Origin: an uncultured Methanosarcinales archaeon
Lineage (GTDB): Archaea > Nanobdellota > Nanobdellia > Woesearchaeales > CAIVOO01
Assembly: GCA_964485195.1 (NCBI GenBank)
Contig: CAZAIK010000001.1
Coordinates: 124,001 to 188,000, forward strand
DNA: 64,000 nucleotides
Reading direction: 5' to 3'
Each line of letters starts with the position of its first letter. Position 1 is the stretch's first letter. This document shows positions 1-3,000 of this stretch, piece by piece. Position numbers: made by a program.

Positions 1-3000
1 CTGTTGACAGGAAAGTGCTAGACGCTATGCTTCCTTATTTCTCTGAAAAATACGGCAATCCAAACAGCATGCACCAGAAAGGCCTGGAAGCAAGGGAAGC
101 TGTAGACAATGCAAGGCAAAAGGTTGCCGAACTTTTGGGAGCTGACGAGAAGGAAATCTTTTTCACGAGCGGAGGCACAGAGTCTGACAACCTTGCATTG
201 ATGGGTGTTGCGAAGGCATACAAGGAGAAGGGAAATCACATAATCACGACAAACACGGAGCACCACGCTGTTCTTGATACCTGCAAATACCTGGAAGATG
301 CGGAGGGATTCAAGGTCACATACGTTGAAGTGCAGGAAAACGGGATAGTGAATCCTGAGGATATTGAAAAAGCAGTCACCAAAGATACCATATTAATCTC
401 TGTTATGTACGCCAACAATGAGATAGGGACCATCCAGCCTATAAAGGAAATTGCAGAAATAGCCGAAAAGCACAATGTATTGTTCCATACCGATGCCTGC
501 CAGGCAGCGGGCTATCTCAACGTCAATGTTGAGGATTTAGGGATTGACTTGATGACATTGAACGGAAGCAAGATTTACGGCCCGAAGGGAATAGGAATGC
601 TCTATGCCAAAAAAGGAGTGATAGTAAAGCCCCTAATCCACGGGGGAGGGCAGGAGAGAGGCGTAAGGAGCGGGACAGAGAACGTGCCCGGAATTGTGGG
701 GTTTGCAAAGGCGCTGGAAATTGCGCAAAAGGAAAGAGAAAGAGAATCAAAAAAAGTGGCAAAGCTAAGGGACAAGCTGCTTGAAGGAATTAAAAAAAAG
801 ATTCCCCACATCAGCATAAACGGGGACATGGAAAAGAAGCTTCCCAACAACCTCAACGTGTCATTTTTGGGAGTTGAAGGGGAAGCAATGCTTTTGCACC
901 TTGACAAGGAAGGGATCTGCGCCTCAACAGGAAGCGCCTGCTCTTCCCATTCATTGGAGCCTTCCCACGTTATAAAAGCTTTGGGATTGAGTGATGAGGC
1001 TTCTCACGGTTCATTAAGATTTTCACTGGGGAAGCACACAACAGAGGAAGACATTGAAAAGGTTTTGAAGGAACTGCCAAAGATTGTTGAAAGCCTGAGA
1101 AAAATATCGCCCATAGCACCATGAGCAACAAATGGTTTTATTCGGAAGAGGTAAAGGAGCATTTCTTTAATCCCAAGAACATTATCAAGTCCAAGGAAGA
1201 GGCTGAAAAATTCAATGCAGACGGCGTCGGAATAGTTGGAAATCCTAAATGTCTATTGCCCTATGAAAGAATACACACAGATGAGAGAATTATTGAAATA
1301 TCAAAATTGAAAAAAAGGCAAAAAGTACTTACTCATACAGGAGAGTACAGTAAAATATCAAAAATACTGGAAAGAGATTATAAGGGCAAGGCAATAAAAT
1401 TCAAAAATAAACTTGGAAATTTAACACTAACCCCAGATCATCTAGTGTATGGAATTAGTGTTCCAAAAGGAAACAAATCCTACAGGAATAAGCACAAAAA
1501 AACACTGATTCCTTCATGGTACCATGCAGAACACTTAAAAAAGAATGATCTGCTTCTTTACCCAATATACAAAACAAAAAAAGATAAAAAATTTATCAAA
1601 ATAGAAATACTAAAATCAAAGTGGGATTTCAAAAGCAAAGAAGTTCCCAATAAAATTCCAGTTAATTCAAAATTTCTGAGATTGCTAGGTTATTTTTTAT
1701 CAGAAGGCAATGTTCAAGATAAGCCATCAAAAGCATATATCTCCTTCTCATTGAACATAAATGAAAAAGAGATTGTGGAAGACATAAAAAAGATATCCGA
1801 AAGTCTTTTTAATCTTGAAATAAAAATTACAGAATACCCTAAAAATAACTGTTCGGTGGTGCACATATACAATGCAAAACTTGCGAGGTTCTTTTTGGAG
1901 TTATGTGGGAACGGAGCGGCAAATAAAAAAATTCCTTCTTTTGTGATGGATCTTCCAATCAAAAAACAGGAAGCCTTGTTATTTGGACTTTGGAAAGGCC
2001 ATGGATATGTTAATATTGAAAGAACAGGTCCAAGAGCAGGTTATGCTACCACCTCTTATCAATTAGCTCAGCAGATAAAAACCTTATTATTAAGACAAAA
2101 AATTGCCCCTTCATTATACACGGACAATGGGAAAAAAGTTAAAGGAATCAGTAGAAAAACAGCATACAGAATTCATATCGGTCAAAGAGACTCTCTAAAA
2201 AAGTTATGTAAAATACTTAAATTAAAATATTGTCCAAAATCCTACGAGTCTATAGAATCTTGGTTTGATAATAATTACTTTTATACTCCAATAACAACAA
2301 AGAAACTGGTTGAATATGAAGGAAAAGTTCATAATTTAGAAGTAGAAAAAGCGCATTCTTATGTATCTGAATCTGCATCTGTTCATAATTGTGGAGATAT
2401 GATGAAGATGTGGATCAAGGTTGACAAAGGCATTATCACAGACTGCAAATACCAGACATTCGGCTGCGCATCTGCAATTGCAACCACCTCTGTGCTTTCA
2501 GAAATGGTAAAAGGGATGAAGGTGGAAGACGCATTCAAGATAACCCCCAAGGAAATTGTGGAAAAATTGGGAGGGCTGCCTGCAATAAAATTCCACTGCT
2601 CTGTGCTGGGAGACAAGGCATTGAGAGAGGCAATAAATGATTATTACAGGAGAACGGACCAGATTGAAAAAATTGTAACTGACTCCCCAATGGTCGATGA
2701 AACCCTGAGGATAACAGAAAGGGATATTGAAAACGCAGTAATTGAGGGCGCAAAAACCCTTGAAGATGTCCAGGCCAGGACAAAGGCAGGCCTCATCAAC
2801 GAAAAAGCAATCCCCAGAATAAAAGAGCTTATCAAGATTTTCAGGAAAAAGCATTCTGTTTAATCATAAACTTTAAATAAAAAAGCAGAAACCAAGGATT
2901 ATGCTTCCAAAAGATGCACCGCTCAAAAAATTGTTCAAGGAAATAATAGGCATATTAAATTCCAAAGCTGTCTACAGCGATTTGCTGCTGATTGATGAAT

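Follow-up and report, generated by a model that had tools for sequence, protein, structure and literature searches.

The SufB (Pps1) intein of M. tuberculosis lies, like the one described here, inside a protein that acts as the scaffold in Fe-S cluster assembly, and SufB is listed in the intein survey of Novikova et al. (PMC4760082). The main text and supplementary file 2 of that survey contain 0 occurrences of NifU or IscU (PMC4760082), and full-text literature searches returned no paper on an IscU or NifU intein. The IscU host site seems to be undescribed in print; the kind of element is itself ordinary. On the control of splicing, a review describes how oxidising conditions trap the P. abyssi MoaA intein through a disulfide, and how zinc inhibits several inteins (PMC10663303).

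The closest structural references for the host protein are the IscU of A. fulgidus (4eb5/4eb7) and that of Methanothrix (7c8m), which represent the archaeal IscS-IscU pair. In IscU, a set of Cys, Asp, Cys, His and Cys residues serves as cluster ligands. I describe here an iscU gene interrupted directly before the first of these ligands, at the start of a stretch of 64,000 nucleotides (hereafter referred to as the window) from a Woesearchaeales genome.

Organization of the iscS-iscU locus

An open reading frame of 580 amino acids, at positions 1121–2863 of the forward strand, encodes an IscU/NifU_N scaffold with an intein inside it. The features of the locus are given below; conservation counts refer to 120 aligned homologues, among the matches listed of 273 clusters (E<=1e-5).

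3..1124, + strand: cysteine desulfurase IscS/NifS, 5′ end cut at the window start (Aminotran_5, E 2.3e-83; TIGR03402 FeS_nifS, 538 bits, cut-off 530.75)
1121..2863, + strand: IscU precursor ORF, 580 aa plus stop, comprising N-extein, intein and C-extein
1121..1249, + strand: N-extein, residues 1–43, ending ...GVGIVGNPK; alignment with residues 2–32 of 4eb5_C (A. fulgidus IscU) and with the N-terminal part of the IscU of genome G001, which lacks the intein
1229..1249, + strand: upstream part (7 codons) of a run of A/T-ending codons that straddles the insertion point, with 3 more codons at 2390–2398
1250..2389, + strand: class-1 intein, 380 aa, Cys44 to Asn423; GC 31.0%, GC3 25.0%
1250..1252, + strand: Cys44 codon TGT, intein residue 1 and predicted first nucleophile (C in 120/120 homologues listed)
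1430..1441, + strand: block B, T104-P-D-H107 (TxxH; T in 119/120, H in 120/120 homologues listed)
1601..2245, + strand: LAGLIDADG homing-endonuclease domain, approximately residues 161–375, limits approximate (Pfam and Foldseek)
1676..1714, + strand: LAGLIDADG motif 1, LRLLGYFLSEGNV, with the acidic residue E195 at 1703–1705 (E in 119/120, G190 and G196 in 120/120 homologues listed)
1970..2014, + strand: LAGLIDADG motif 2, EALLFGLWKGHGYVN, with codon 294 CAT (His) at 2000–2002 instead of the family Asp
2327..2389, + strand: blocks F and G, ending ...SVHN, with His422-Asn423 at 2384–2389 (TIGR01443 intein_Cterm 403–424; N405, H422 and N423 in 120/120 homologues listed)
2390..2860, + strand: C-extein, residues 424–580, starting with Cys424 (TGT, 2390–2392), predicted +1 nucleophile and first cluster ligand; D426, C449, H492 and C493 present
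2675..2860, + strand: cysteine-free BFD-like C-terminal tail, residues 519–580 (Fer2_BFD E 1.5e-4, below cut-off; TIGR02000 model positions 22–184)

The ATG of iscU overlaps the iscS stop codon by 4 nt (ATGA, 1121–1124). The junctions read ...AAT CCT AAA / TGT CTA (1249/1250) and ...CAT AAT / TGT GGA GAT (2389/2390), which places the insertion point between the GNPK and CGD parts of the IscU motif, directly before the first ligand cysteine. In the 580-aa product, Pfam identifies NifU_N (PF01592) at residues 419–512 with 126.3 bits (cut-off 22), LAGLIDADG_3 (PF14528) with 65.9 bits in two stretches, and Hom_end at residues 270–362. Intein_splicing reaches 23.6 bits, under its cut-off of 35.8, and the NCBIfam model TIGR01443 (intein_Cterm) matches residues 403–424 with 20.1 bits (cut-off 15.6). 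The NCBIfam equivalog models stay under their thresholds, as the match is split by the intein. The length of the intein varies little, from 372 to 383 aa across 71 related loci, and the BFD-like tail also occurs in three intein-free relatives (G001, G003 and G004).

These data bear out the architecture proposed in the genome-wide survey's note, namely a 580-aa ORF at 1121–2863, whose open frame and domain matches were reproduced, adjoining iscS, as the FeS_nifS match and the 4-nt overlap indicate. The limits read from the junction codons (N-extein 1–43, intein C44–N423, C-extein from C424) are exactly those proposed, the two LAGLIDADG motifs within the intein are backed by both the Pfam stretches and the alignment, and the alignments to G001 and 4eb5_C confirm an insertion directly before the first cluster-ligand cysteine. 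The 55% identity of the exteins to A. fulgidus IscU was also reproduced.

Splicing residues, predicted fold and the intein-free allele

The insertion possesses the hallmarks of a class-1 intein: a Cys at position 1, a TxxH block B, and a terminal His-Asn followed by Cys at +1. Residues C44, H107, H422, N423, C424, G425 and D426 are invariant in all 120 aligned homologues listed, and T104 is present in 119 of them. At the position of the block F Asp (F:4) the aligned residue is Asn405, also in 120/120 homologues listed. An Asp in block F is usual in most class-1 inteins, yet not universal among inteins, and I do not treat Asn405 as disqualifying. Close to the C-terminal junction the window's intein departs from the family at F419A (F in 114/120 homologues listed), S420 and V421, substitutions that could slow splicing.

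An AlphaFold2 (AF2) model (pLDDT 91.5, pTM 0.78) has as its top Foldseek matches the TliVMA intein 7qsu (E 2.6e-21, TMt 0.75), PI-SceI, PI-PkoII and PI-PfuI. The HINT fold is thus recognized in the model through 7qsu and PI-SceI; the host part superposes on A. fulgidus IscU (4eb5_C) with an rmsd of 1.0 over 95 columns.

An intein-free form of the gene is found in G001, a genome of the same genus, where the gene order iscS-iscU-tldD is identical. Its IscU has 206 aa and reads ...GNPKCGDMMKMWIKV (GNPKCGD), and the matches to window residues 3–44 and 424–579 abut in its DNA. Both exteins also align to 4eb5_C around its Cys33. The insertion is a genuine class-1 intein, predicted to be self-splicing, rather than a chance pattern, since the splicing residues are invariant or nearly so and the gene of the genus mate runs through the junction without a break. 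The precursor is accordingly expected to undergo protein splicing. A search for mini-intein forms, with residues 30–165 as query against proteins under 319 aa (48 candidates scored), gave none at E<=1e-5.

State of the homing endonuclease

The LAGLIDADG fold of the endonuclease domain is supported by PF14528 (65.9 bits) and by Foldseek matches to I-DmoI (2vs7, TMt 0.75) and to PI-SceI. The acidic residues that end the two motifs are kept across the family, E195 in 119 and D294 in 118 of the 120 homologues listed. The window's copy retains the first, but carries His294 in motif 2; it is the sole His among the 120 homologues listed, the one other exception being a Tyr. The CAT codon is the same in a contig from a second sample of the same study (depth 2.8). 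In total, the window's intein shows 4 deviations at conserved positions, where the median is 1; the nuclease domain holds 3 of the 4. Because His replaces the second catalytic Asp, the endonuclease of this copy is probably not intact, and homing probably disabled. An enzyme with His at this acidic position might nonetheless still nick or cut DNA.

Probable dependence of the host on the IscU product

No deviation is seen in the exteins at any position with a conservation of 95% or more. The complete IscU ligand set, Cys-x-Asp ... Cys ... His-Cys, is present (C424, D426 and C449 in 120/120, H492 and C493 in 119/120 homologues listed); these residues align with Cys38/Asp40/His106 of 7c8m and, by offset, with 37/39/105/106 of E. 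coli IscU (2l4x). The gene gives the single NifU_N match in a genome that is 99.5% complete, and a profile search of this genome gave no SUFBD_core match for SufBD. The genome also encodes 14 radical-SAM matches over cut-off, proteins that need clusters. Since only one scaffold gene was found, it is reasonable to expect that IscU works only after splicing.

Distribution of the intein allele

The intein is absent from all 40 close relatives; in 31 of these an IscU match without it is present. Among 400 sampled genomes of the window's phylum, 8 are carriers, and two relatives in the phylum show an in-frame stop inside the intein-bearing IscU match. A relative is encoded in 115 species genomes, whose titles range over DPANN, Asgard, Thermoplasmatota and CPR. 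The five bacterial-labelled carrier genomes all possess Sigma70_r2 and all lack TFIIB, and one of them has three sigma-70 genes on the 434-kb contig that also holds its intein-bearing IscU. I considered that such carriers could be mis-binned archaea, and rejected this on the grounds of these transcription genes.

The abundance of homologues claimed in the genome-wide survey's note was recovered (273 clusters at E<=1e-5, with PF14528 and PF01592 combined in 119 of the 119 listed besides the query), as was the absence of any intein annotation: the carriers, hundreds of entries, are named 'NifU-like', 'scaffold protein' or 'hypothetical'. The description of the allele as common in DPANN needs qualification. 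It holds for the many database clusters, but per genome the allele is rare (0/40 and 8/400), and it is not confined to DPANN, as it extends to CPR bacteria.

Origin of the intein

Intein and exteins of the window differ in their relationships. The intein reaches at most 63% identity, with inteins hosted by short-type IscU proteins that share only 45–55% identity with the window in their extein cores; the closest intein-bearing extein, that of P0098 (79%), hosts an intein of only 37% identity, and the long-type inteins as a whole are 37–44% identical. In the intein tree, the window falls within a set of 21 short-type rows (SH-aLRT 98), and five long-type inteins form a clade of their own (100). 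The extein tree instead places the window together with the 5 long-type rows and the 3 intein-free relatives (99).

The base composition also differs, with a GC3 of 25.0 in the intein and 50.0 in the exteins, the 7th most negative gap when set against 68 related loci. A low intein GC3 is however a family-wide trait (intein below extein in 61/68 loci, median gap −12.4, intein-extein correlation r 0.89), so composition alone is weak evidence, and I rejected the GC dip by itself as proof of recent transfer. Around the junction, 10 consecutive codons end in A or T, more than in any other such run among the 200 extein codons, although this is one post-hoc observation, and 6 synonymous differences from G001 fall within 8 codons. 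This run is a possible co-conversion tract or homing-site flank. Taken together, the disagreement between intein and extein similarities and the GC3 of 25% against 50% suggest a fairly recent horizontal gain of the intein, although an AU test, given below, does not reject the alternative.

Proposed mechanism and alternative explanations

I consider it likely that the gene encodes the sole IscU precursor of this organism, carrying a selfish mobile intein that was gained fairly recently, whose endonuclease is probably disabled and whose splicing is kept by selection. After translation, Cys44 would attack the Lys43 peptide bond (N-S acyl shift), and the N-extein would pass to Cys424 by trans-thioesterification. 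Cyclisation of Asn423 would then free the intein, and an S-N shift would create a normal peptide bond. The predicted product is a 200-aa IscU with the GNPK-CGD motif restored, partner of the co-transcribed IscS. The intein itself would be selfish, spreading by endonuclease-driven homing into the conserved codons of GNPx/CGD, which fits its patchy occurrence in many small-genome archaea and in CPR bacteria. For the lineage of the window, the likeliest source would be a lower-GC donor with a short-type IscU, in a fairly recent gain, after which Asp294 would have become His through a single G-to-C change, probably turning the endonuclease off. Selection would continue to maintain splicing, as IscU is needed by the host. 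The anatomy of the gene, the conservation of its residues, the fold model, the empty allele of the genus mate and the distribution are shown here; splicing, the need for it, the loss of nuclease activity, and the direction and recent date of the transfer are what I infer.

An intein that is instead old and vertically inherited, with repeated precise losses in the relatives of the genus and family and a fast evolution of the long-type inteins, is in my view unlikely. A tree that joins the window's intein with the long-type inteins is not rejected by the AU test on 25 rows (delta lnL 13.3, p 0.157), five long-type IscU, the extein kin of the window, carry an intein at the same site, and the GC gap, found at 61/68 loci, is not specific to recent arrivals. 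Against this, the 40 close relatives without the intein include a genus mate at 78–79% extein identity, and the intein is 63% identical to those of short-type hosts but 37–44% to the long-type ones. The two intein groups are moreover parted with SH-aLRT values of 98 and 100, few of the 68 loci used for comparison have a larger GC3 gap (the window ranks 7th), and a precise loss requires an intein-free donor allele anyway. An artefact of assembly or binning, yielding a chimeric contig, has next to no probability: the GC dip alone speaks for it, whereas contigs of two samples bridge both junctions with 0 differences over the stretch, the frame is continuous, and the same architecture recurs in 273 homologous clusters. 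Contigs from the three runs of one study contained no intein-free joint, a result that has no bearing on polymorphism, as rare variants are dropped from contigs.

Two further explanations concern what the intein does at present. It may have been co-opted as a conditional switch, with the redox state, metal or sulfur gating splicing and hence the supply of active scaffold; the gate could be a disulfide between Cys44 and Cys424, the binding of Zn or Fe, or a persulfide formed on Cys424. That both nucleophiles are cysteines, in a sole scaffold that handles Fe and S, is compatible with such a role, and the disulfide trap of the P. abyssi MoaA intein and the zinc inhibition of several inteins are precedents (PMC10663303). 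No sequence feature demands a switch, however, the endonuclease catalytic residues are conserved family-wide, the patchy cross-domain spread is the pattern of a purely selfish element, and close relatives do well without the intein; I find this role quite improbable. The same low standing applies to its extended form, where splicing of the precursor would be blocked as long as Cys424 is oxidised or occupied (through a disulfide to Cys44, Zn or Fe, or a persulfide that the neighbouring IscS delivers), and the intein would have spread among archaea and CPR as a ready-made module. If true, it would provide a post-translational brake on scaffold supply, answering oxygen, metal or sulfur status, in organisms that have only IscS-IscU. 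Alternatively, the intein may no longer splice, leaving the gene effectively dead; clusters or holo-proteins would then be obtained by another route, for example through a scaffold not yet recognised or from a host cell. Symbiosis is frequent among small-genome archaea of this kind, the four deviations at highly conserved intein positions include F419A, five residues before the C-terminal junction, and two relatives in the phylum have the in-frame stop mentioned above. This is very doubtful, as the ORF is open over 580 codons with all catalytic splicing residues intact, the exteins keep every ligand and deviate at 0 conserved positions, iscS is translationally coupled to iscU, and the 14 radical-SAM genes need clusters.

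Implications and comparison with known systems

IscU is among the best-studied proteins of Fe-S biogenesis, and an intein at its first ligand cysteine offers a clean natural test case. It raises the question of whether extein chemistry (metal, persulfide, redox) feeds back on protein splicing, and that of how a selfish element can persist in reduced genomes when it interrupts their one essential Fe-S scaffold. The allele occurs in DPANN-type archaea and CPR bacteria as well as in some records of Asgard and Thermoplasmatota, and is therefore also a marker for gene exchange between the two groups of ultra-small cells. In the hundreds of database entries that make no mention of the intein, protein length is inflated and the equivalog models are broken. 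For a specialist the surprise is nonetheless moderate, because elements of this type are ordinary and the pathway already has a precedent in the SufB intein.

In its HINT fold and LAGLIDADG nuclease, the window's intein resembles the VMA inteins of archaea and yeast (TliVMA, 7qsu/7qss; PI-SceI, 1vde/1lws), PI-PkoII (2cw7) and PI-PfuI (1dq3), with Foldseek E-values from 2.6e-21 to 3.3e-13, and PI-PkoII is also matched in sequence (E 7e-07). It differs from these by an identity of only 12–19%, by their hosts (ATPase, DNA polymerase and RNR), and by the missing second catalytic Asp of the window's copy. As a host, the window's protein is close to the IscU of A. fulgidus and Methanothrix: its exteins are 55% identical to 4eb5_C (rmsd 1.0), the Cys/Asp/Cys/His/Cys residues are present, and iscU is adjacent to and coupled with iscS. 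Those proteins are however uninterrupted, and the window's has in addition a BFD-like tail, 62 residues long and free of cysteine.

The P. abyssi MoaA intein (PMC10663303) is likewise archaeal, uses a cysteine nucleophile and sits in an oxygen-sensitive, Fe-S-related host protein. It is trapped when Cys1 forms a disulfide with a cysteine of the N-extein, in contrast to the window, where the N-extein contains no cysteine. From the M. tuberculosis SufB (Pps1) intein, the present one is set apart by a non-homologous host (IscU of the ISC system, as opposed to SufB of SUF), by another insertion site, and by its occurrence in small-genome archaea and CPR rather than in Actinobacteria. As far as this is testable, only in the IscU intein is the +1 nucleophile a known cluster-ligand cysteine.

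Anatomy of the IscU precursor

The iscU gene lies directly downstream of a gene for a NifS/IscS-type cysteine desulfurase (Aminotran_5, E 2.3e-83; TIGR03402, 538 bits, above cut-off), and its ATG shares a four-base overlap with the stop codon of that gene (ATGA at 1121-1124). The features of the precursor are as follows.

1121-2863, + strand: IscU precursor open reading frame, 580 residues
Residues 1-43, + strand: N-extein, ending at the junction 1249/1250
1250-2389, + strand: intein, Cys44-Asn423, 380 aa
Residues Cys424-Val580, + strand: C-extein, starting after the junction 2389/2390

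Both junctions are read in the DNA, as AAT CCT AAA/TGT CTA TTG upstream and GTT CAT AAT/TGT GGA GAT downstream; along with the reading frame, they agree with the coordinates and the description of intein and exteins in the genome-wide survey's note. Pfam places NifU_N on residues 419-512 of the 580-aa protein (126 bits against a cut-off of 22; positions 29-124 of the 127-position model), LAGLIDADG_3 on two stretches, and also Hom_end, with a sub-threshold match to Intein_splicing. Among NCBIfam models, intein_Cterm matches residues 403-424 above cut-off; since the intein divides their match, the IscU/NifU equivalog models fall short of their cut-offs.

Downstream of iscU is an adjacent pair of genes for PmbA/TldD-family metallopeptidases (2901-4283 and 4280-5563), a neighbour also found in G001, a genome of the same genus.

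A genuine intein at the first cluster ligand

Four independent lines agree that the element is a real intein, as that note had claimed: an empty site in a relative, conserved catalytic residues, a fold model and a sound assembly. In G001, the gene order iscS-iscU-tldD is that of the window, and the IscU protein is 206 aa long, intein-free, and reads ...GIGMVGNPKCGDMMKMWIKV...; at the DNA level, the matches to residues 3-44 and 424-579 of the window's protein abut, with 78-79% identity. Likewise, residues 2-33 of the A. fulgidus IscU (4eb5_C) align to residues 7-44, and its residues 33-128 to residues 424-519. Since both alignments meet at Cys33, the first cysteine of the intein and the +1 cysteine both fall on this residue.

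In an alignment of 120 homologues, including the window's protein, every sequence has C44, H107, H422, N423, C424, G425 and D426, and 119 of the 120 also keep T104. Block F of class-1 inteins commonly has Asp; the family departs from this consensus with an invariant Asn, N405. An AF2 model built on the same alignment has a mean pLDDT of 91.5 and a pTM of 0.78. Its top Foldseek match in the PDB is TliVMA (7qsu, E 2.6e-21, TMt 0.75), then PI-SceI, PI-PkoII and PI-PfuI, and after these intein endonucleases come IscU structures (4eb5_C, rmsd 1.0 over 95 columns, 55% identity). Finally, contigs of two samples show zero differences over the stretch, and both junctions are bridged.

In the alignments, Cys424 corresponds to Cys33 in the A. 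fulgidus IscU, Cys38 in the Methanothrix protein (7c8m) and residue 37 in that of E. coli (2l4x), which bears out the proposal that the +1 splicing nucleophile is the first ligand cysteine of IscU. D426, C449, H492 and C493, which together with Cys424 make up the cluster-ligand set, are invariant or nearly so among the 120 homologues, and variant names in PDB titles (D40A, H106A, H106C) are consistent with this role. Inteins typically occupy conserved functional positions before Cys, Ser or Thr, so the position in IscU is mechanistically unsurprising.

The last 62 residues of the C-extein (residues 519-580, window 2675-2860) resemble the BFD-like [2Fe-2S] domain of NifU. The Pfam match to Fer2_BFD, at residues 531-557, is below cut-off (E 1.5e-4), and positions 22-184 of the NCBIfam model TIGR02000 are matched. 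This tail is without any cysteine, is modelled confidently as helices, and is also present in the intein-free relatives G001, G003 and G004.

The host genome

The genome (1.13 Mb in 32 contigs, 99.5% complete) is archaeal, with TFIIB present and Sigma70_r2 not found. Its one NifU_N match is the intein-bearing iscU, and SUFBD_core has no match in it, with all control genomes positive. There are 14 radical-SAM matches above cut-off, and the exteins show zero deviations at positions conserved in at least 95% of homologues. Together, these features suggest that the cell depends on the intein-bearing iscU, and would hence depend on its splicing.

At least four further genes in this genome bear inteins, namely those for an archaeal helicase, an ATP-dependent DNA ligase (its N and M domains are separated by a gap, and there is a LAGLIDADG match), GyrB and PEP synthase/PPDK; there is also one free-standing LAGLIDADG ORF. 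These LAGLIDADG/intein loci outside the window lie on C1 at ~2-5 kb (L002) and ~8 kb (L007), C5 at ~22.6-23.9 kb (L008), C10 at ~16 kb (L005) and C20 (L004) of G000, the window's own genome. The intein load is high for a genome of 1.13 Mb.

Distribution of the allele

A protein database search yielded 273 homologous clusters at E<=1e-5. All 119 matches listed besides the query combine LAGLIDADG_3 with NifU_N, and the sources name them no more specifically than "NifU-like", "scaffold protein" or "hypothetical". Among species-representative genomes, 115 of 130 pattern-matched stretches encode a relative. Titles of the 80 loci kept include Woesearchaeota, Pacearchaeota, Nanoarchaeota, Aenigmatarchaeota, Diapherotrites/Iainarchaeum, Micrarchaeota, Undinarchaeota and Altiarchaeota, as well as two Asgard records, Methanomassiliicoccales and Thermoplasmata, and many of the species-representative carriers have CPR-bacterial labels. 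That the latter are mis-binned archaea can be rejected: Sigma70_r2 was found in 5/5 of the bacterial-labelled carriers examined and TFIIB in 0/5, and one of them encodes its intein-bearing IscU (G042:C1:70477-71997) on a 434-kb contig that also has three sigma-70 genes. Both archaea and bacteria thus genuinely carry the allele.

It is rare per genome, occurring in 0 of 40 close relatives of the same genus, family or order (31 of which have an intein-free IscU match) and in 8 of 400 sampled genomes of the phylum. The survey's description of the allele as common but unannotated in DPANN thus stands for the names of the matches listed, but not for its host range or frequency. Intein length varies little, from 372 to 383 aa across 71 parsed loci.

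Two of the eight phylum carriers have one in-frame stop each within the match, TAA and TGA (G185:C24:9865-11391 and G253:C16:8675-10189); these copies may be decaying or recoded, or the stops may be sequencing errors. In a phylum genome beyond the eight, a 543-aa open frame (G132:C3:39219-39755) matches the window's protein only at residues 404-578, and may be an IscU of the long form (long type, as in the window) whose site holds some other intein or a strongly diverged one.

State of the endonuclease

Across the family, the LAGLIDADG acidic residues are kept (E195 in 119/120, D294 in 118/120), and mean similarity to the window's copy is 61% in the nuclease domain, against 48-49% in the N-terminal splicing part and extein core, which fits an element that is still homing at the family level. 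The two LAGLIDADG motifs noted in the survey are indeed present in the window's copy, but its nuclease is altered. His294 (CAT at 2000-2002) is unique among the 120 homologues and one G-to-C change from GAT; the second-sample contig, of depth 2.8 and from the same study, has the same letters at this codon. In total, the intein deviates at four positions that are at least 95% conserved (F262C, D294H, H345R and F419A; median 1), a number exceeded only by five long-type inteins, which form a separate subfamily. Three of the four are within the nuclease domain, suggesting the familiar homing cycle in which invasion and fixation would be followed by nuclease decay with splicing retained. The fourth, F419A, precedes the C-terminal junction by five residues and might influence splicing.

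History of the intein

The closest inteins (up to 63% identity) are in IscU proteins of the short type, which share just 45-55% identity with the window's protein in the extein core. Conversely, the long-type P0098, the closest intein-bearing protein by its extein (79% core, 64% tail), shares only 37% identity in the intein. In a tree built from the intein columns of 63 rows, the five long-type inteins group together as a clade (SH-aLRT 100), and the window's intein is placed within a 21-row set from short-type hosts (SH-aLRT 98); the extein columns group the window with the five long-type proteins and three relatives that lack the intein (support 99). GC3 is 25.0 in the intein, compared to 50.0 in the exteins, 51.6 in iscS and 53.6 in tldD. 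Seven codons upstream of the junction and three downstream of it make an unbroken run of ten ending in A or T, longer than any other among the 200 extein codons. The run includes six synonymous differences from G001 within eight codons and matches the flanks seen in low-GC carriers, a pattern expected of a short co-conversion tract.

Two results count against a recent gain. An AU test on 25 rows does not reject a tree that unites the window's intein with the long-type clade (delta lnL 13.3, p 0.157), and low intein GC3 is general, being below extein GC3 in 61 of 68 loci (median gap -12.4, r 0.89 with the host), against which the window's gap of -25.0 ranks 7th. On balance, I consider that the window's lineage probably acquired the intein horizontally, and fairly recently.

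Related genomes have inteins 30-37% identical to the window's in host proteins other than IscU, of 667-855 aa (G004:C118:10067-11317, G021:C10:81778-82890, and loci in G297, G172, G378, G361 and G310). The NCBIfam intein-bearing model that best matches the window's intein is that of the tetraether lipid synthase Tes (E 8e-23). Such inteins might offer a way to trace where the IscU intein came from.

Comparison with known inteins

In its make-up, the window's element is an ordinary class-1 intein carrying a LAGLIDADG nuclease. Conditional splicing is on record, through disulfide trapping (P. abyssi MoaA) and zinc (PMC10663303), but it is improbable that the IscU intein splices in this manner. 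The IscU intein is a good experimental test case rather than a new mechanism. Full-text searches of mainly openly accessible literature turned up no paper that describes an intein in IscU or NifU, and NifU/IscU is absent from the main text and supplementary file 2 of the survey of Novikova et al. (PMC4760082). What appears to be new is IscU as a host site; this kind of element is well known. Biologically, the M. tuberculosis SufB intein comes closest, and SufB is among the hosts listed in the same survey.
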